Virus genome (UHGV): UHGV-0274736 | DNA: 13,898 nucleotides | Origin: a virus | Strand: one strand, 5' to 3' | In this document: positions 381 through 12,929 of the stretch, piece after piece | How the letters are laid out: each line of letters starts with the position of its first letter | How positions within the stretch are numbered: position 1 is the first letter of the stretch | Notes under the pieces: model-generated | The model's input: only the letters and a program-made list of their open reading frames with translations | The model's database searches: none | What the model was told of the DNA's origin: nothing | Position numbers and translations under genes: made by a program

Positions 381-500
381 AATCCGTTGAAGCCTGCTTT
401 TTTATACTAAGTTGGCATTATAAAAAAGCATTGCTTATCAATTTGTTGCAACTAACAGGTCACTATCAGTCAAAATAAAATCATTATTTGATTTCAATTT
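381..500. other. attL (B-O-P'): 15-bp lambda core GCTTTTTTATACTAA at 396-410, host-type B arm to the left, phage P' arm with arm-type Int/IHF sites to the right
   Basis: Core sequence read directly at 396-410; downstream GTTGGCATTATAAAAAAGCATTGCTTATCAATTTGTTGCAAC...CAGTCAAAATAAAATCATTATTTG matches the recalled lambda attP P' arm; upstream tgaagcct matches recalled attB side. Confidence 0.85.
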
Positions 501-1554
501 TGTCCCACTCCCTGCCTCTGTCATCACGATACTGTGATGCCATGGTGTCCGACTTATGCCCGAGAAGATGTTGAGCAAACTTATCGCTTATCTGCTTCTC
601 ATAGAGTCTTGCAGACAAACTGCGCAACTCGTGAAAGGTAGGCGGATCCCCTTCGAAGGAAAGACCTGATGCTTTTCGTGCGCGCATAAAATACCTTGAT
701 ACTGTGCCGGATGAAAGCGGTTCACGACGAGTAGATGCAATTATGGTTTCTCCGCCAAGAATCTCTTTGCATTTATCAAGTGTTTCCTTCATTGATATCC
801 CGAGAGCATCAACATGCAATGTTGTTGGGATGGCAATTTTTACGCCTGTTTTGCTTTGCTCGACATAAAGATATCCATCTACGATATCAGACCACTTCAT
901 TTCGCATAAATCACCAACTCGTTGCCCGGTAACAACAGCCAGTTCCATTGCAAGTCTGAGCCAACATGGTGATGATTCTGCTGCTTGATAAATTTTCAGG
1001 TATTCGTCAGCCGTAAGTCTTGATCTCCTTACCTCTGATTTTGCTGCGCGAGTGGCAGCGACAGGGTTTGTTGTTATATGGCCTTCAGCTATTGCCTCTC
1101 GGAATGCATCGCTCAGTGTTGATCTGATTAACTTGGCTGACGCCGCCTTGCCATCGTCTATGTATCCATTGAGCATTGCCGCAATTTCTTTTGTGGTGAT
1201 GTCTTCAAGTGGAGCATCAGGCAGACCCCTCCTTATTGCTTTAATTTTGCTCATGTAATTTATGAGTGTCTTCTGCTTGATTCCTCTGCTGGCCAGGATT
1301 TTTTCGTAGCGATCAAGCCATGAATGTAACGTAACAGAATTATCACTGTTGATTCTCGCTGTCAGAGGCTTGTGTTTGTGTCCTGAAAATAACTCAATGT
1401 TGGCCTGTATAGCTTCAGTGATTGCTATCCTCCTGTCTCGGCCTAATCCAAACTCTTTACCCGTCCTTGGGTCCCTGTAGCAGTAATATCCATTGTTTCT
1501 TATATAAAGATTAGGGGGTAAATCCCGGCGCTCATGACTTCGCCTTCTTCCCAT
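484..1554 (-). CDS. int: Tyrosine integrase, lambda Int type (356 aa)
   Basis: ORF-track protein MGRRRSHERRDLPPNLYIRNNGYYCYRDPRTGKEFGLGRD...HLLGHKSDTMASQYRDDRGREWDKIEIK matches recalled lambda Int almost throughout; stop abuts attL P' arm. Confidence 0.97.
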   Translation of the reverse strand: MGRRRSHERRDLPPNLYIRNNGYYCYRDPRTGKEFGLGRDRRIAITEAIQANIELFSGHKHKPLTARINSDNSVTLHSWLDRYEKILASRGIKQKTLINYMSKIKAIRRGLPDAPLEDITTKEIAAMLNGYIDDGKAASAKLIRSTLSDAFREAIAEGHITTNPVAATRAAKSEVRRSRLTADEYLKIYQAAESSPCWLRLAMELAVVTGQRVGDLCEMKWSDIVDGYLYVEQSKTGVKIAIPTTLHVDALGISMKETLDKCKEILGGETIIASTRREPLSSGTVSRYFMRARKASGLSFEGDPPTFHELRSLSARLYEKQISDKFAQHLLGHKSDTMASQYRDDRGREWDKIEIK

Positions 1555-1750
1555 TTTTGATCCTCTTCAAAAGGCTACCTGTTACTGGTCGATTTAAGTC
1601 AACCTTTACCGCTGATTCGTGGAACAGATACTCTCTTCCATCCTTAACCGGAGGAGGGAATATCCTGCACTCGCGTACCCATCGACGAACTGTTTCAAGG
1701 CTTCTTGGGCGTCGCTGGCGTGCGTTCCACTCCTGAAGTGTCAAGTACAT
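1532..1750 (-). CDS. xis: Excisionase, lambda Xis type (72 aa)
   Basis: MYLTLQEWNARQRRPRSLETVRRWVRECRIFPPPVKDGREYLFHESAVKVDLNRP... matches recalled lambda Xis; 3' end overlaps int start by 23 nt as in lambda. Confidence 0.95.
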   Translation of the reverse strand: MYLTLQEWNARQRRPRSLETVRRWVRECRIFPPPVKDGREYLFHESAVKVDLNRPVTGSLLKRIKNGKKAKS

Positions 1751-6633: not shown

Positions 6634-7602
6634 TTAGTAGATTATTTTTGTTGCGAATACTTCGCCTTTTACGATGGCTGTTATGATATTTTTAGCAACA
6701 TCTTCTGATGCGCCAACCTTGATAAGGTCAGCAAGTATTTTGTTATTTACTTCTTTCCGGTGAGCTTTATCCTTTGCTCTACGCTCTTCTTCGTCCTTGA
6801 TTCTTTTTTCTTCTGCTATTCTGGCTTGCTCTTTTGCTTCAGCTTCGCGCCGGATTCGTTCAGCCTCCTCCTGTGCTTTTCGGCGTTCTGCTTCAATTGC
6901 CGCCTGCTTTTCTCTTTCAGCTCGTTCTGCTGCCTCTTTTGCTTCGCGCTGTGCTCGTTGCTCGGCTTCAATGCGTTCACGCTCTGCACGTTCCGCTGCG
7001 GCCTTAGCTTCTGCTTCTCGCCTTGCTGCTGCTTCAATTTCGGCTTTTGCCTTTGCTTCGGCTTCAGCTCTGGCTTTCTCTTCAGCTTCTCTTTTTAAGC
7101 GTTCTTCATGCTCTCGCTTTTCCTGCTCCGCTTTGAGTCTTGCCTCTTCTCTTTGGCGGTCAAATTCGCGATCCATCAAAATAGCTATTTCATGGTCAGA
7201 CTCAATTTGCTTTGCGAGAGCTTCAGCTGCTGCCTTAGCTTCTTCTTCGGCTTTAATCCGTGCCTGTTCCTCCTCATAATCAGTAAGAGGCTGGCGCGCC
7301 TTGGCTTTCAGTTCATCAAGGCGATCGCGCACTGTCTTGCGGTTGGCATCAATTAGCTTTGGAATTTCCTTCAGTTCAGCAACAAGGTCTTTGCCAAGAC
7401 CATCGAGATATGTTTTCGTCTGCGCAACTTTATACGCCAGAGAAGCGATCTCCTTTCTGCCCTTTGCCGTTGTGATATCAGGCACAAAGGACATAACTTC
7501 ACGTTCAACCCTTTGAAGGATTTCTTCAATCTGGTCGGCAGACTGAAATACAGTCATTGCATTTGCTTTTTCAATAACAACTAAATCTGTTACTTCACTC
7601 AT
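6634..7602 (-). CDS. Glu/Ala/Lys/Arg-rich coiled-coil protein (322 aa) with globular N- and C-terminal ends
   Basis: GGAGGA SD 5 nt before ATG; about 170 residues of EAKR-type low-complexity repeat (REAEEKARAEAEAKAKAEIEAAARREAEAK...); the plus-strand ORFs in the same interval are antisense artefacts of the repeat. Confidence 0.75.
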   Translation of the reverse strand: MSEVTDLVVIEKANAMTVFQSADQIEEILQRVEREVMSFVPDITTAKGRKEIASLAYKVAQTKTYLDGLGKDLVAELKEIPKLIDANRKTVRDRLDELKAKARQPLTDYEEEQARIKAEEEAKAAAEALAKQIESDHEIAILMDREFDRQREEARLKAEQEKREHEERLKREAEEKARAEAEAKAKAEIEAAARREAEAKAAAERAERERIEAEQRAQREAKEAAERAEREKQAAIEAERRKAQEEAERIRREAEAKEQARIAEEKRIKDEEERRAKDKAHRKEVNNKILADLIKVGASEDVAKNIITAIVKGEVFATKIIY

Positions 7603-9088: not shown

Positions 9089-9670
9089 ATGAACAACTCA
9101 TGGTGGCAGGAACTAATGCATTTTTTCCTGCAAGGAATGACACTTAAACAGTTGATTCATATGCTAATCATCCTGATCATATTGATTATTGTTATGCCGG
9201 TAAGCGTAAAAGAATGGATAAACCTGCATAATCCAGAAATCCTTCCTCATTATTGGATGTATTACATCCTGTTGTTCTGCGTTAGCTATGTGCTTAACGG
9301 TGTTGTTAATTCCGCTTATCACGCTGTGACTGAAAGAATTGAGGTATCCGCTGCTCAGAAGCGCAAATCTAAAGAAGAAAAATATGTGCAAGATTTGTTT
9401 GATTCGTTAACTCTTGGAGAAAGAGCGTATTTGGCATTCGCTGTAGCCGCGAATAACAAGCTAAAGACAGAAAAGGGAAGCCCCGAAGCAATCTCATTGC
9501 TCGAAAAAGGGCTTCTTATTCGGATACCTTCTGCTACTGGATATCCTGAAATCGACCGTTTTGTTATCCCGGAACGCTATAGAAATGAGTGCTACATTAG
9601 GTTTGCTGGGAAGAAAGACAGTCTTATGGATGAACTTATCGCTCAGGATAAGCATGGCAAAAACAAGTAA
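9089..9670 (+). CDS. sieB: Superinfection exclusion protein B
   Basis: MNNSWWQELMHFFLQGMTLKQLIHMLIILIILIIVMPVSVKEWINLHNPEILPHYWMYYILLFC... matches recalled lambda SieB; convergent with N as in lambda. Confidence 0.85.
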   Translation: MNNSWWQELMHFFLQGMTLKQLIHMLIILIILIIVMPVSVKEWINLHNPEILPHYWMYYILLFCVSYVLNGVVNSAYHAVTERIEVSAAQKRKSKEEKYVQDLFDSLTLGERAYLAFAVAANNKLKTEKGSPEAISLLEKGLLIRIPSATGYPEIDRFVIPERYRNECYIRFAGKKDSLMDELIAQDKHGKNK

Positions 9671-9686
9671 TTAGCAAATGATTTTA

Positions 9687-10070
9687 TCATCTCGCCGTCA
9701 GTTGTTTTGATTTCCTGTAGCCTGCCGCGTAAATGGCTACGTTTGGAAGACATACACCAGTTTCTGGTTGCTTATGTCCAAACTCATTCGCGTACACAAT
9801 GGCCGCTCGCTCCAGATTGCGTCTGTATTCTTTCTGTTGCCAGATCACGTCCTGTGCCATGAACTTAATTGGCTTAGCGTCTTCTATGCGCTCAGGCGTT
9901 TCGTGAGCACCTTTAGCCTGAATCTGCGCTCTGCTTAGAGTAGGGCGGTGTAATACTTCTGAACTTATTGCTTCTTCGCGGGCCAGCACGCCGTTAGCTA
10001 ATGCCTTTGCCTTTAAACGCTCACGACGACGAGAACGTGAATTGCCTTTGAACTGAGTTCTGCGTGTCAT
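9687..10070 (-). CDS. N: N-type transcription antiterminator (127 aa) with N-terminal arginine-rich motif
   Basis: AGGAGG SD 6 nt before ATG; N-terminal GNSRSRRRERLKAKA is an arginine-rich RNA-binding motif like lambda/P22 N; sits directly downstream of a boxB-like hairpin and pL-like promoter. Could alternatively be a Nun-type factor. Confidence 0.7.
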   Translation of the reverse strand: MTRRTQFKGNSRSRRRERLKAKALANGVLAREEAISSEVLHRPTLSRAQIQAKGAHETPERIEDAKPIKFMAQDVIWQQKEYRRNLERAAIVYANEFGHKQPETGVCLPNVAIYAAGYRKSKQLTAR

Positions 10071-10235
10071 ATAGACCTCCTGATGAACTTTGGTGGTGTG
10101 GTAGGTGGGAGACCCATTTCGACCTGTTTCGGCCTACTTCAATTCGGCAATAGTCCCGCAGGCCTCGCCGCTTTACGTGCGACATATTCCCGTCCATGAA
10201 CCCTTCACCACACCCCAAAGTTCACTTTGGTTATT

Positions 10236-10250
10236 GCGCTTTGTCAGCGC
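10236..10250 (-). promoter_or_regulatory. nutL boxB-like hairpin (GCGCTGACAAAGCGC on the transcribed minus strand)
   Basis: 5-bp stem with 5-nt GACAA loop in the N leader; the same hairpin core with the same 5' flank CTACG recurs downstream of cro (see nutR). Confidence 0.6.
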
Positions 10251-10318
10251 CGTAGATTCATATTCGAATCGTTGTATATTCACCGCCCTGGTGAGTAGTG
10301 CGTCCTGCTGATAGCTAA

Positions 10319-10347
10319 ATAGTACGATGTGTACTTTATTGAGTCAA
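10319..10347 (-). promoter_or_regulatory. pL-like promoter with operator OL candidate in the spacer
   Basis: On minus strand: -35 TTGACT (10342-10347), 17-nt spacer, -10 TACTAT (10319-10324); 15-bp perfect palindrome AGTACGATGTGTACT (10321-10335) overlaps the spacer and -10. Confidence 0.5.
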
Positions 10348-10404
10348 TACAAAATGTTCTAAATATGGTTGGTTTTTTATAACACCTTGTATTTTATTGA
10401 TTTA

Positions 10405-10440
10405 TATTTTGGAAAAAGAAAACCCGACGCTAAGGTCGGG
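10405..10440 (-). terminator. Intrinsic terminator downstream of cI
   Basis: Hairpin CCCGAC-GCTAAG-GTCGGG at 10423-10440 followed on the minus strand by TTTTCTTTTTCC; lies 33 nt past the cI stop. Confidence 0.6.
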
Positions 10441-10472
10441 TTATTGTTGTGTGTTTTAGAGTGGTGATGCTG

Positions 10473-11132
10473 TTAACTAAATGTCTCTTCAGGCCACTGG
10501 CTGGCGATAACTTTCCCTACTACGGAACAGCTATCATTGCATGGGATCATTGGATATTGCGGGTTTAGTGGTTGTAGGAACACCTGACCGCTATCCCTGA
10601 TCAGTTTCTTGAAGGTAAACTCCTCACCACCAAGTCTGGCTATGCAGAAATCACCTGGCTCAACAGCCTGCTCAGGGTCAACGAGAATTAACATCCCGTC
10701 AGGAAAACTTGGCTTGGATCCTGTTGGTGCGGTCATGGAATTACCTTCAACTTCAAGCCAAAACGCACAATCACTGGCTTTTTTGGTTGTGCTGACCCAT
10801 CTCTCCGCATCACCTTTGGTAAAGGTTCTAAGCTCAGGCGAGAACATCCCGGCCTGAACATGAGAAAAAACAGGGTACTCATATTGTTTTTTTACGGGGG
10901 CAGATGAGTATTCGCCAACAGGTGAAAATGTACCGTCGTGGTTGAATGAGACGTTATCAATACCAAGGTATTTAAACACCACACCAATCTCGTCAAGAGA
11001 TGGATGACGAGATCCGCGCAACCAGTGACCAATTCCACCCTGCGTCATACCAAGCTCTTCAGCTAACTTCTCTTGAGTTATGCCGAGCTCTTTCATTCTG
11101 GATCTAGCCAGTTCATACCATTTCATTTTCAT
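10473..11132 (-). CDS. cI: CI repressor: HTH (XRE-type) N-terminal domain plus lambda-type LexA-like S24 autopeptidase C-terminal domain
   Basis: C-terminal roughly 130 aa ([21 protein letters not shown]...GNSMTAP...[27 protein letters not shown]...) match recalled lambda CI including the Ala-Gly cleavage site and Ser/Lys dyad; N-terminal domain differs from lambda. Start is ambiguous (ATG at 11132 or 11126); the track ORF start at 11207 would run through the operator region. Confidence 0.85.
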
Positions 11133-11188
11133 ATCCTTATTATTACGCTCTGTACTAAAACCATCCATGCACAAGATGTATTTTTTGT

Positions 11189-11217
11189 TTGCATTCCAAG
11201 AGTACATATCGTATTAT
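11189..11217 (+). promoter_or_regulatory. pR-like promoter with operator OR candidate in the spacer
   Basis: -35 TTGCAT (11189-11194), 17-nt spacer, -10 TATTAT (11212-11217); spacer contains AGTACATATCGTATT (11201-11215), nearly identical to the OL palindrome. Confidence 0.5.
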
Positions 11218-11243
11218 TGTTTCATAGTTACTATGGAGGGCAT

Positions 11244-11459
11244 ATGAGCAACCTACGAAAATATCGAGAGTCACTGAATATCTCTCAAGCAACCCTTGCT
11301 AAGGCGGTTGGATGCACACAGGGGGCTATCGGACATTGGGAATCTGGTCGTCGCTTCCCAGACCTTAAAACATGCCGTGCTCTTGTTGCGTGCCTAAACA
11401 AGTTAGGCGCAAAAGTCAGTCTTGATGACGTGTTCCCGCCGGAACACCAAGCCGCTTAA
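11244..11459 (+). CDS. cro: Cro-like repressor (71 aa, HTH)
   Basis: GGAGG SD 4-5 nt before ATG at 11244; HTH segment ISQATLAKAVGCTQGAIGHWESG closely parallels the cI HTH ([23 protein letters not shown]); divergent from cI. The track ORF start at 11073 is an upstream extension overlapping cI. Confidence 0.8.
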   Translation: MSNLRKYRESLNISQATLAKAVGCTQGAIGHWESGRRFPDLKTCRALVACLNKLGAKVSLDDVFPPEHQAA

Positions 11460-11461
11460 TA

Positions 11462-11473
11462 AGCGGATCCGCT
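11462..11473 (+). other. 12-bp perfect palindrome AGCGGATCCGCT immediately after the cro stop, overlapping a second palindrome CCGCTTA-A-TAAGCGG across the stop codon
   Basis: Read directly; followed by ATTTTC; may be a weak terminator or protein-binding site. Confidence 0.3.
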
Positions 11474-11500
11474 ATTTTCACAATGGACATTCGTCCTACG

Positions 11501-11515
11501 TCGCTGACAAAGCGA
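11501..11515 (+). promoter_or_regulatory. nutR boxB-like hairpin (TCGCTGACAAAGCGA)
   Basis: Same stem-loop core and CTACG 5' flank as the nutL candidate; located between cro and cII as in lambda. Confidence 0.55.
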
Positions 11516-11590
11516 GTCCCAATATATCTGACCAACTAAGGCCATATGCGTTTCCACGCATACCTTTCAGCTAACTATTCACTATTGGAA

Positions 11591-11623
11591 ATATTAAGAA
11601 ATGACACAAACAAGTTACAGCAA
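11591..11623 (-). promoter_or_regulatory. Candidate pRE (CII-activated promoter) overlapping the cII start
   Basis: Minus strand reads TTGC-TGTAAC-TTGT (11610-11623, cf. the CII site TTGC-N6-TTGC) followed 17 nt later by TAATAT (11591-11596); orientation would drive antisense through cro into cI. Confidence 0.35.
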
Positions 11624-11897
11624 ACTATCACAGCGCGACGTTGATCGCGCTGAAACTGATTTACTTATCAACCTGTCAACGCTTACCCAGCGCGGTCTGG
11701 CAAAGATGATTGGCTGTCATGAATCGAAGATAAGCAGAACGGACTGGAGATTTATTGCTTCGGTCTTGTGTGCTTTCGGAATGGCATCAGACATCAGTCC
11801 GATTAGCAGGGCTTTTAAGTATGCGCTTGATGAAATCACAAAGAAAAAATCCCCGGCCGCCACCGAGGATTTTAAGCAAATTGGTATGCAATTCTGA
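11601..11897 (+). CDS. cII: CII-like transcriptional activator (98 aa)
   Basis: Central HTH region and C-terminus [18 protein letters not shown] resemble recalled lambda CII (...KKRPAATERSEQIQMEF); position after cro/nutR. Confidence 0.8.
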
Positions 11898-11929
11898 GGG
11901 AATTACTGGATCAATCCACAGGAGTAATT

Positions 11930-12076
11930 ATGACAAAACAACTCAGTCCTTACCAGGACAAAATTCACAAACACATACTACGTGATCGCTTCCTGTCCAG
12001 CTTCAAGCAGCCTGGTCGATTCCGGTCTGAGTTGGAAAAAGTGAAGCTGATGCAGAAGGAGAAAGGTCATGAGTAA
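11930..12076 (+). CDS. Small hypothetical protein (48 aa) between cII and O
   Basis: AGGAG SD 6 nt before ATG at 11930; stop overlaps the O start by 8 nt; below the length cut-off of the ORF track. No recognised family. Confidence 0.4.
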
Positions 12077-12929
12077 TATTGCAACCGTAACACATTTAAG
12101 GCCTTCACAACGGCCTGTGGAGCGTCGTGTGGCAGAAGTTGAAGATGGTTATACCCGTCTTGCAAATGCCCTGTATGAAGAGCTTATCGGCGCAGATTTA
12201 ACGAAAAATCAGAGCAAGGTTGCCCACGCCATATGCCGTAAAACATACGGCTACGGTAAAAAGATGGATCGCATCTCTGATAGTCAGTTAGCTCAAATTA
12301 CCAGGCTGCCAAGACAGAAGGTAAACAAGGCCAAGAATGAGCTTATCGCGATGAAGGTTATCCTTCGCGAAGGCCAGCAAATCGGGCCTAACAAGAACAT
12401 CGAGGAATGGCAAATCGAAGGGTGTCACTACTCTGGTGATAATGTCACTGCATTGGTGACAAAAAGTGTCACCAAAACGGTGACAGCGCTGTCACCAAAA
12501 CAGGGACACACAAAAGAAACTATTACAAAAGAAAAAAGAAATAATAAAAACACTATGTCCGAAAGTGTTCGGACGGAGTGTGAAAAATCACCTGACCGTC
12601 ACGAAGAAACCGACAAGGCATTCGAGGAAATATTCTGGTGTGCAGGCATGCGGAAAGCCGGGAAGAAAAACGCAGCTTCGGCATTCAGAACACAGTTCAG
12701 GGAATGGCGTAAAACTACCAGGGGTACGGCAAGCGAGTTTGCCACGATGCTGGCAGAAGACATCGCATGCAGGAATGGTAAGCAGTTCGGATTCGACAGG
12801 TTGTTACCATCGAGCTACCTGAACGGTCAACGCTGGAACGACGAGAAGCCAGAAACTATTCAACCACAATCCAAACCATCATCCGCAATCACCGTATCGA
12901 AAACTGGCTACGTGTTTTTCGACAGGTGA
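12069..12929 (+). CDS. O: Replication initiator, lambda O-like N-terminal domain with a non-lambda C-terminal domain (286 aa)
   Basis: N-terminal segment [73 protein letters not shown]...GPNKNIEEW parallels recalled lambda O; iterons lie inside the gene. Confidence 0.8.
12421..12575. repeat. Replication origin candidate: iterons built on GGTGACA/TGTCACC inverted half-sites, adjacent AT-rich block, then palindrome GTCCGAA-AGTG-TTCGGAC
   Basis: GGTGACAAAAAGTGTCACC and GGTGACAGCGCTGTCACC, each followed by AAAAC, plus degenerate copies upstream; A-rich tract 12505-12550; 7-bp-arm palindrome at 12557-12574. Confidence 0.6.

Follow-up and report, generated by a model that had tools for sequence, protein, structure and literature searches.

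The stretch of DNA considered here, which is called the window, comprises 13,898 nucleotides of the UHGV virus genome UHGV-0274736. Its early region is lambdoid: gene N and the pL leader are followed by cI and cro, and then by nutR, cII and O (Table 1). The start of the pL transcript can be placed by homology at the A at 10312 (ATCAGCAGGACGCAC / ATCAGCAGG), as in lambda pL, and the leader start ATCAGCAGGACGCAC is common to the window, lambda, P22 and H-19B. In AP005153, the region homologous to the pR-like promoter bears the annotation of major rightward promoter. Counted from the presumed pL start, the leftward boxB hairpin lies 57-76 nt downstream (at about +63 to +77), at a distance of 165 nt from the N ATG. 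Its rightward partner is found 42 nt past the cro stop codon, and cII begins 86 nt further on.

Table 1. Genes, promoters and RNA elements of the early region, with positions in the window
Feature	Position	Strand	Remarks
sieB	9089..9670	+	
Gene N	9687..10070	-	antitermination protein of 127 aa; arginine-rich arm, FKGNSRSRRRERLKAKAL; Pfam PF25694 N_peptide, E = 2e-15
N leader with long-range closing stem	10084..10224	-	arms 10207..10224 and 10084..10102 (repeats I11/I15)
nutL boxB, GCGCU-GACAA-AGCGC	10236..10250	-	5-bp stem; N-binding hairpin by H-19B/P22 identity
20-mer CTACGGCGCTGACAAAGCGC	10236..10255	-	pL leader, upstream of N
UACG linker, nutL	10251..10254	-	joins the spacer hairpin to boxB; columns invariant when 12 distinct nut sites are aligned
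nutL spacer hairpin, GAUUC-GAAUAU-GAAUC	10255..10270	-	MFE fold
Leader hairpin, UCACC-AGGGC-GGUGA	10280..10294	-	MFE fold; downstream of the pL start, upstream of the nutL spacer hairpin
pL-like promoter	10319..10347	-	-35 TTGACT, 17-nt spacer, -10 TACTAT; consensus scan
cI, LexA-type	10473..11132	-	
pR-like promoter	11188..11217	+	TTTGCA, 18-nt spacer, TATTAT; upstream of cro; consensus scan
cro	11244..11459	+	71 aa, HTH_3
nutR boxA-like CGCUAUUUU (DNA CGCTATTTT)	11470..11478	+	2 mismatches to CGCUCUUUA; inside the RS662 sense strand
nutR spacer CACAAUGGACAUUCGUCCUACG	11479..11500	+	exact match to the RS663 sense strand, "nutR spacer of H-19B"
nutR spacer hairpin, GGAC-AUUC-GUCC	11485..11496	+	MFE fold
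20-mer CTACGTCGCTGACAAAGCGA	11496..11515	+	just 3' of cro
UACG linker, nutR	11497..11500	+	followed by boxB
nutR boxB, UCGCU-GACAA-AGCGA	11501..11515	+	5-bp stem; inside the RS664 match, "nutR boxB of H-19B"
tR1-region hairpin, UAUGCGU-UUCC-ACGCAUA	11545..11562	+	downstream of nutR; identical in H-19B
cII	11601..11897	+	
O	12069..12929	+	

The two early leaders share a short motif. The pattern CTACGNCGCTGACAAAGCG has exactly two matches in the window, at 10237..10255 on the minus strand and at 11496..11514 on the plus strand, and none of 200 dinucleotide-preserving shuffles contained even one. A preliminary description of this DNA, made from the letters alone, had reported identical 20-nt nut cores in the left and right early leaders. 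There are indeed two cores, one in each leader, but they agree at 18 of 20 positions: going from nutL to nutR, stem position 1 changes from G to U and position 15 from C to A. Together these differences make a compensatory swap, so that the outermost boxB pair, G-C at nutL, is U-A at nutR. The plus-strand copy lies after cro, as described, with its coordinate corrected to a start at 11496. When the 15-mers are folded, nutL boxB has a predicted energy of -7.1 kcal/mol (z = -3.2) and nutR boxB of -5.6 kcal/mol (z = -3.8), and at both sites the fold places a GACAA pentaloop on a stem of 5 bp. A search of the whole window with Rfam at gathering thresholds returned no family, a result that is uninformative either way because Rfam holds no nut or boxB model.

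Do these copies act as RNA, or do they act as DNA? No inverted repeat in 9600..12200 is longer than the 20-mer pair (I1, 19 nt, 95%), and this rank gives some ground for the second view, according to which 19-20-bp copies, placed 1.24 kb apart around the immunity region, serve as recombination linkers in the exchange of modules, or as a site where a protein binds or inversion takes place. The same view can call on the fact that the copies bracket cI-cro, a unit exchanged among lambdoid phages, and that the same N is found with several immunity regions. Nevertheless, the two copies differ in a way that preserves pairing in RNA, and for this and other reasons given below, a role at the level of DNA appears very improbable as the explanation.

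As for the surroundings of boxB, the MFE folds place a spacer hairpin at both nutL and nutR. At nutL its arms read GATTC (10255..10259) and GAATC (10266..10270) in the DNA, and 4 nt (UACG) separate it from the boxB stem; the inverted repeat GATTC...GAATC that had been pointed out at 10255-10270, 4 nt from the nutL boxB, is thus confirmed, and in the MFE fold it is the nutL spacer hairpin. The preliminary description had missed both the spacer hairpin of nutR, GGAC-AUUC-GUCC, and the degenerate nutR boxA, CGCTATTTT. The latter, at 11470..11478, is the sole 9-mer near a nut site to differ from CGCTCTTTA at two positions or fewer. At the same threshold, the pL leader (10236..10312) contained no such 9-mer, in agreement with the earlier remark that no clean boxA is visible at nutL. 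One candidate for a nutL boxA, CGCACTACT at 10290..10298, where the nutL annotation of 933W starts, was rejected, having four mismatches to CGCTCTTTA. In 74 loci with the same N, the nutR boxA position reads CGCTATTTT in 44, CGCTCTTTT in 28 and CACTCTTTT in 2, and this polymorphism fits a weak or relaxed constraint on boxA.

Other structures occur in the same transcripts. The leader hairpin at 10280..10294 falls within the 67-nt nutL feature of 933W, and in the relatives its variation is confined to the loop, except for 2 loci with a change in the stem. In the DNA, the same positions make up a palindrome, TCACC-N5-GGTGA, with half-sites like those of a lambda operator; the half-sites stand 2 bp further apart than in lambda, however, and the palindrome lies inside the transcript. 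Closer to N, the long-range stem that closes the N leader stops just ahead of the N Shine-Dalgarno sequence. The fold of this leader has a z of -3.6 (0/200 shuffles), and the stem has compensatory changes in five relatives; it may be analogous to the RNase III stem of the lambda N leader. On the rightward side, the tR1-region hairpin is also present in Sakai and POCJ13, and its equivalent in g341c is annotated as a putative tR.

These nut sites are not new: experimental work on the same sequence in H-19B goes back to 1998-2000 (Neely and Friedman 1998/2000, followed by papers of the Sen laboratory). In this phage (AF034975), the pL leader from ATCAGCAGGACGCAC / ATCAGCAGG through boxB to CTTTGGGGTG is letter for letter that of the window, and the same is true of the cro-cII intergenic region from CCGCTATTTT through the boxA-like sequence, the spacer, boxB and the tR1 hairpin. 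The two N proteins are identical at 123 of 127 positions (97%), and the N-terminal half is without change. Differences are found elsewhere: between its nut sites H-19B carries another cI/cro allele than the window, whose own allele is ∼93-97% identical to alleles of other Stx and non-Stx phages. Because the immunity allele differs, so does the end of cro upstream of boxA (TAAGCGGATCC in the window, AAGTAACACC in H-19B). Another difference lies in the central part of the N leader, although the closing stem is kept.

The oligonucleotides published for H-19B offer a second way to align the two phages. RS663, RS664 and RS665 are antisense to the nutR spacer, to boxB and to the downstream flank, and their sense strands match the window exactly at 11479..11541; the sense strand of RS662 ("antisense to nutR boxA of H-19B") matches from CCGCTATTTTCAC on. 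The H-19B nutR RNA contains two hairpins, and N together with NusA/NusG protects the spacer and boxB and leaves boxA unprotected (PMC3526286). The spacer is also protected by Rho, and nutR/tR1 is an overlapping nut/rut Rho-dependent terminator (PMC3526286). N-dependent read-through of terminators has been demonstrated for this nutR sequence, which is identical to that of the window (PMC3526286, PMC4499122). Given this identity, the published biochemistry of H-19B should apply directly to the sites described here.

A similar picture emerges from 933W (AF125520), where the segment with N and nutL is 99.2% identical to the window. A 67-nt feature of this phage, "nutL; putative N-utilization leftward", maps to 10236..10302 of the window, so that its last base coincides with that of boxB; one or two bases differ at its 5' end (CGCATTACT in 933W, CGCACTACT in the window). 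In 933W several genes, including stk, stand between nutL and cI, whereas in the window cI comes directly next. The proposal that the two hairpins are the boxB elements of nutL and nutR is therefore borne out by the H-19B identity, by the 933W nutL annotation and by the matches to the H-19B nutR oligonucleotides. Among 5426 complete E. coli genomes, 1609 (∼30%) contain the module in part, and 48 have the full arrangement.

Small stable hairpins in 5' leaders are open to another reading, namely that they serve in termination, attenuation or RNase processing and not in the binding of N. The region is in fact also involved in termination, since nutR of H-19B overlaps the rut of the Rho-dependent tR1. 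However, the stems measure just 5 bp, no U tract follows either boxB, and neither hairpin was called by the terminator scan. Moreover, identical sequences have been defined experimentally as boxB, and the loop co-varies with the type of N, a feature that a terminator does not need. A purely terminating or processing function is accordingly given hardly any credence.

With regard to P22, its nutL boxB (GCGCTGACAAAGCGC; RNA GCGCUGACAAAGCGC) is identical to that of the window at 15/15 positions. The GACAA loop recurs in P22 nutR, where it is carried by another stem whose closing position is C/C. Lambda has the same layout (pL - nutL - N and cro - nutR - tR1 - cII) and, like the window, a boxB made of a 5-bp stem and a G...A pentaloop, but its loops are GAAGA/GAAAA and its stem is GCCCU/AGGGC. 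The comparison with the lambda and P22 nut sites that had been suggested thus supports the earlier statement that the GACAA loop is P22-like and not lambda-like. Outside boxB, the window differs from both phages: in P22, nutL and nutR each possess a clear boxA (GCTCTTTA) and neither a spacer hairpin nor a UACG linker, and lambda combines a clean boxA (CGCTCTTA) with a short, unstructured spacer.

The N proteins lead to a comparable result. BLASTP against P22 gp24 covered the C terminus only, and for this reason the arm was aligned separately, with a shuffle control. The arms of window N (RTQFKGNSRSRRRERLKAKAL) and of P22 gp24 (KSTFAGNAKTRRHERRRKLAI; reference sequence GNAKTRRHERRRKLAIER) are of the same type, F.GN..(S/T)RR.ER, and align with a local score of 46, which is reached by 2/2000 shuffles. 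The lambda N arm is a poorer match to window N than gp24, its score being reached by 65/2000 shuffles. The C-terminal 30 aa of window N are 67% identical to gp24, and the central part is unrelated. The alignment of the arm with gp24 and the 97% identity with H-19B N are both in line with the non-lambda N that had been postulated.

Structural information is available for P22. For P22 boxB, both the sequence and the complex formed with the N peptide (NMR structure, PDB 1A4T) are described in PMC11480772. The GACAA loop has a GNRA-like fold, and the looped-out cytosine touches His7 and Arg11 of the peptide (PMC12550061). In window N, these two contact residues are Arg and Lys. A PDB sequence search with window N returned a chance match only (E = 1.7), and P22 did not appear because the chains of its peptide lack the length or the similarity needed to register.

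Another source of evidence is the natural variation among related phages, for which two sets were compiled, 160 related IMG/VR loci in all: 80 with an N 98-99% identical to that of the window (933W-type), and 80 with a Sakai-type N. In the 933W-type set, nutL CTACG plus boxB is identical in 79 of 80 loci, and the nutR core is identical, on the opposite strand, in 74 of 80. The arms of the nutL spacer hairpin are invariant in 79 loci, with loops that read GAATAT, AAATAT, AAGCAA or AAACAT; in the nutR spacer stem, the sole variant is a G.U wobble. When the two sets are compared, the boxB loop follows the type of N: it is GACAA with the 933W-type N (nutL 79/79, nutR 74/74) and GAAA with the Sakai-type N (nutL 79/79, nutR 74/74), these counts being of close relatives and not of independent events. 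Since the same cro-end flanks occur in both N groups, the nutR loop tracks the distant N gene and not the adjacent cro allele.

The phages of the second type, VT2-Sakai and g341c, have the scaffold of the window, and the same cI/cro alleles occur in them as in window-type phages. Their nutR is otherwise identical (GGACAUUCGUCC UACG UCGCU...AGCGA), but the GAAA tetraloop is one C shorter than the window loop, the N arm (FKGTAASRRRAHRAELQ or FNGSAAGRRRERRAALQ) is unlike that of the window, and nutL has a clear boxA, GCTCTTTAA, which the window nutL lacks. More generally, the distant relatives of N keep the scaffold of spacer hairpin, UACG and boxB, with equivalent spacer hairpins of other sequences at the same place, and the loop changes along with the N arm. 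In SPN9CC (N 86% identical) the loops are GUCAA at nutL and GACAA at nutR, in g341c and SI5 (67-70%) GAAA, in VT2-Sakai (40%) GAAA at both sites, and in POCJ13 (35%) GCAA at nutL and GAAA at nutR.

The pairing itself was assessed on the 12 distinct nut sites. Standard pairs fill 98.8% of the cells, both partners vary in 4 of the 7 pairs tested, covariation scores 0.554, compared with 0.139 in shuffles (0/500), and all slid registers collapse; the sites are related and were chosen for fitting the scaffold, so that these values are supportive and not an independent proof.

These data return us to the idea of copies acting as DNA. In the relatives, the stems change on both sides with the pairing kept, the loop follows the N allele and not the neighboring cro allele, and in H-19B the footprint of N and NusA/NusG is on RNA (PMC3526286). 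Recombination may well occur incidentally at conserved nut sequences, but it leaves these features unexplained. Both this idea and that of terminators or processing sites fail because compensatory stems, absent U tracts, co-variation of loop and N, and published RNA footprints have no place in them. The reading of the hairpins as nut sites has its observed basis in the H-19B identity, the predicted folds, the compensatory stem changes and the co-variation of loop and N, and none of the evidence gathered speaks against it. We therefore regard it as almost certain that the two hairpins of the window are nutL and nutR of a lambdoid prophage with an N/nut module of the H-19B/933W type.

How would these sites work? 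Each of the two early transcripts, pL leftward and pR rightward through cro, would carry a spacer hairpin, UACG and the GACAA boxB, and the arginine-rich N terminus of N would bind the boxB loop on the nascent RNA. By analogy with the complex of the P22 N peptide and boxB, this loop would adopt a fold resembling a GNRA tetraloop, and its looped-out C would touch the peptide. N would then bring NusA to the spacer and, with NusG, remain attached to RNA polymerase; the polymerase modified in this way would resist the Rho-dependent tR1, which overlaps nutR, and the terminators further downstream, and the delayed-early genes would be expressed. The spacer hairpin may shorten the effective distance between boxA and boxB, and an N of the window type would probably need NusA but neither NusB/S10 nor boxA. 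In this regard, Neely and Friedman reportedly found in 2000 that H-19B N requires NusA and not NusB or S10, and that boxA is dispensable for it; they are also said to have seen in the spacer dyad a structure that brings the flanking sequences together. These points accord with the present data.

A further thought, which we put forward tentatively and think rather less probable than its opposite, is that a common scaffold exists in two alleles, GACAA with the 933W/H-19B N, to which the window sites belong, and GAAA with the Sakai/g341c N, and that N specificity is perhaps set by the single looped-out base. If the N/boxB pairs proved orthogonal, this would explain that co-resident Stx prophages do not cross-activate their early operons. 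It would also make the pair a natural one-nucleotide specificity switch, a point that concerns the family and not this window in particular. The cross-tabulation of loop and N type is itself a natural confirmation, at the level of sequence, of the boxB loop as determinant of N specificity, and may help in selecting orthogonal N/boxB pairs for use as tools.

For the window, the value of the finding lies mainly in annotation: the nut sites identify it as a lambdoid prophage whose N/nut module is that of the Shiga-toxin phages H-19B and 933W. Delayed-early transcription is under the control of this module, as is, in the end, the expression of the toxin in Stx phages.

The association between the boxB loop and the type of N protein is perfect across the 160 related loci. 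On the same scaffold, phages with a Sakai/g341c-type N (L091-L170 and L087-L090) carry a boxB with a plain GAAA tetraloop, and their nutR differs from that of the window (11501..11515) only in that the loop C is missing. Identical cI/cro alleles are found alongside both this N type and that of the window. As for the pair that closes the loop, it is C/C in P22 nutR (ACCGC-C-GACAA-C-GCGGU; L003, 3938..3971) and in the nutL of phage SPN9CC (GCUC-C-GUCAA-C-GAGC; L086), and U-A in the other sites. A flanking C-C pair is also described for the boxB hexaloop of phage 21 (PMC12550061).

The nutR boxA position (window 11470..11478) varies among phages that share the same N (L006-L085): CGCTATTTT occurs in 44 of them, CGCTCTTTT in 28 and CACTCTTTT in 2. 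Both the window and H-19B carry the A allele, which is further from the consensus.

The other features of the region are collected in the table; the leftward early genes lie in series between the integrase/Xis-like ORF and N.

Coding and structural features accompanying the nut sites
Feature	Coordinates	Strand	Remarks
Lambda-type integrase	484..1554	minus	window left end
Xis-like ORF	1532..1750	minus	window left end
Coiled-coil-rich ORF	6634..7602		among leftward early genes
N-leader long-range stem	10084..10102 + 10207..10224	minus (RNA)	~19 bp; closes the leader
Perfect palindrome TCACC-AGGGC-GGTGA	10280..10294	minus	transcribed pL leader
Hairpin, T-rich tails on both strands	10421..10442		directly downstream of cI
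Conserved hairpin TATGCGT-TTCC-ACGCATA	11545..11562	plus	30 nt 3' of nutR boxB; followed by CCTTTCA
Strong terminator-like hairpin and T tract	11846..11873	minus	within cII

The hairpin that follows nutR is found unchanged in H-19B and also occurs in Sakai and POCJ13, and its equivalent in g341c is annotated as a putative tR; it is probably part of the tR1 region. The terminator-like hairpin within cII matches the lambda oop terminator in position. As for the hairpin downstream of cI, the 933W record places a tM terminator between cI and nutL.

Another element is the palindrome of the pL leader, which lies inside the segment called nutL in the 933W annotation. Its half-sites are similar to those of the lambda operators (TATCACCGC), but their spacing is 2 bp wider. 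The palindrome folds into a hairpin, and in most relatives variation is limited to the loop. The palindrome may serve as a second spacer hairpin, or it may be what is left of an operator.

Lastly, the long-range stem of the N leader encloses a variable insert of ~100 nt, and the N Shine-Dalgarno sequence, GGAGG (about 10077..10081), lies a few nucleotides beyond its end. H-19B retains the ends of the stem, with an insert different from that of the window, and the leaders of SPN9CC, g341c, SI5, VT2-Sakai and POCJ13 have the same predicted stem, with compensatory changes. In lambda, an RNase III stem in the N leader couples nutL to N translation, and the stem described here looks like its counterpart.
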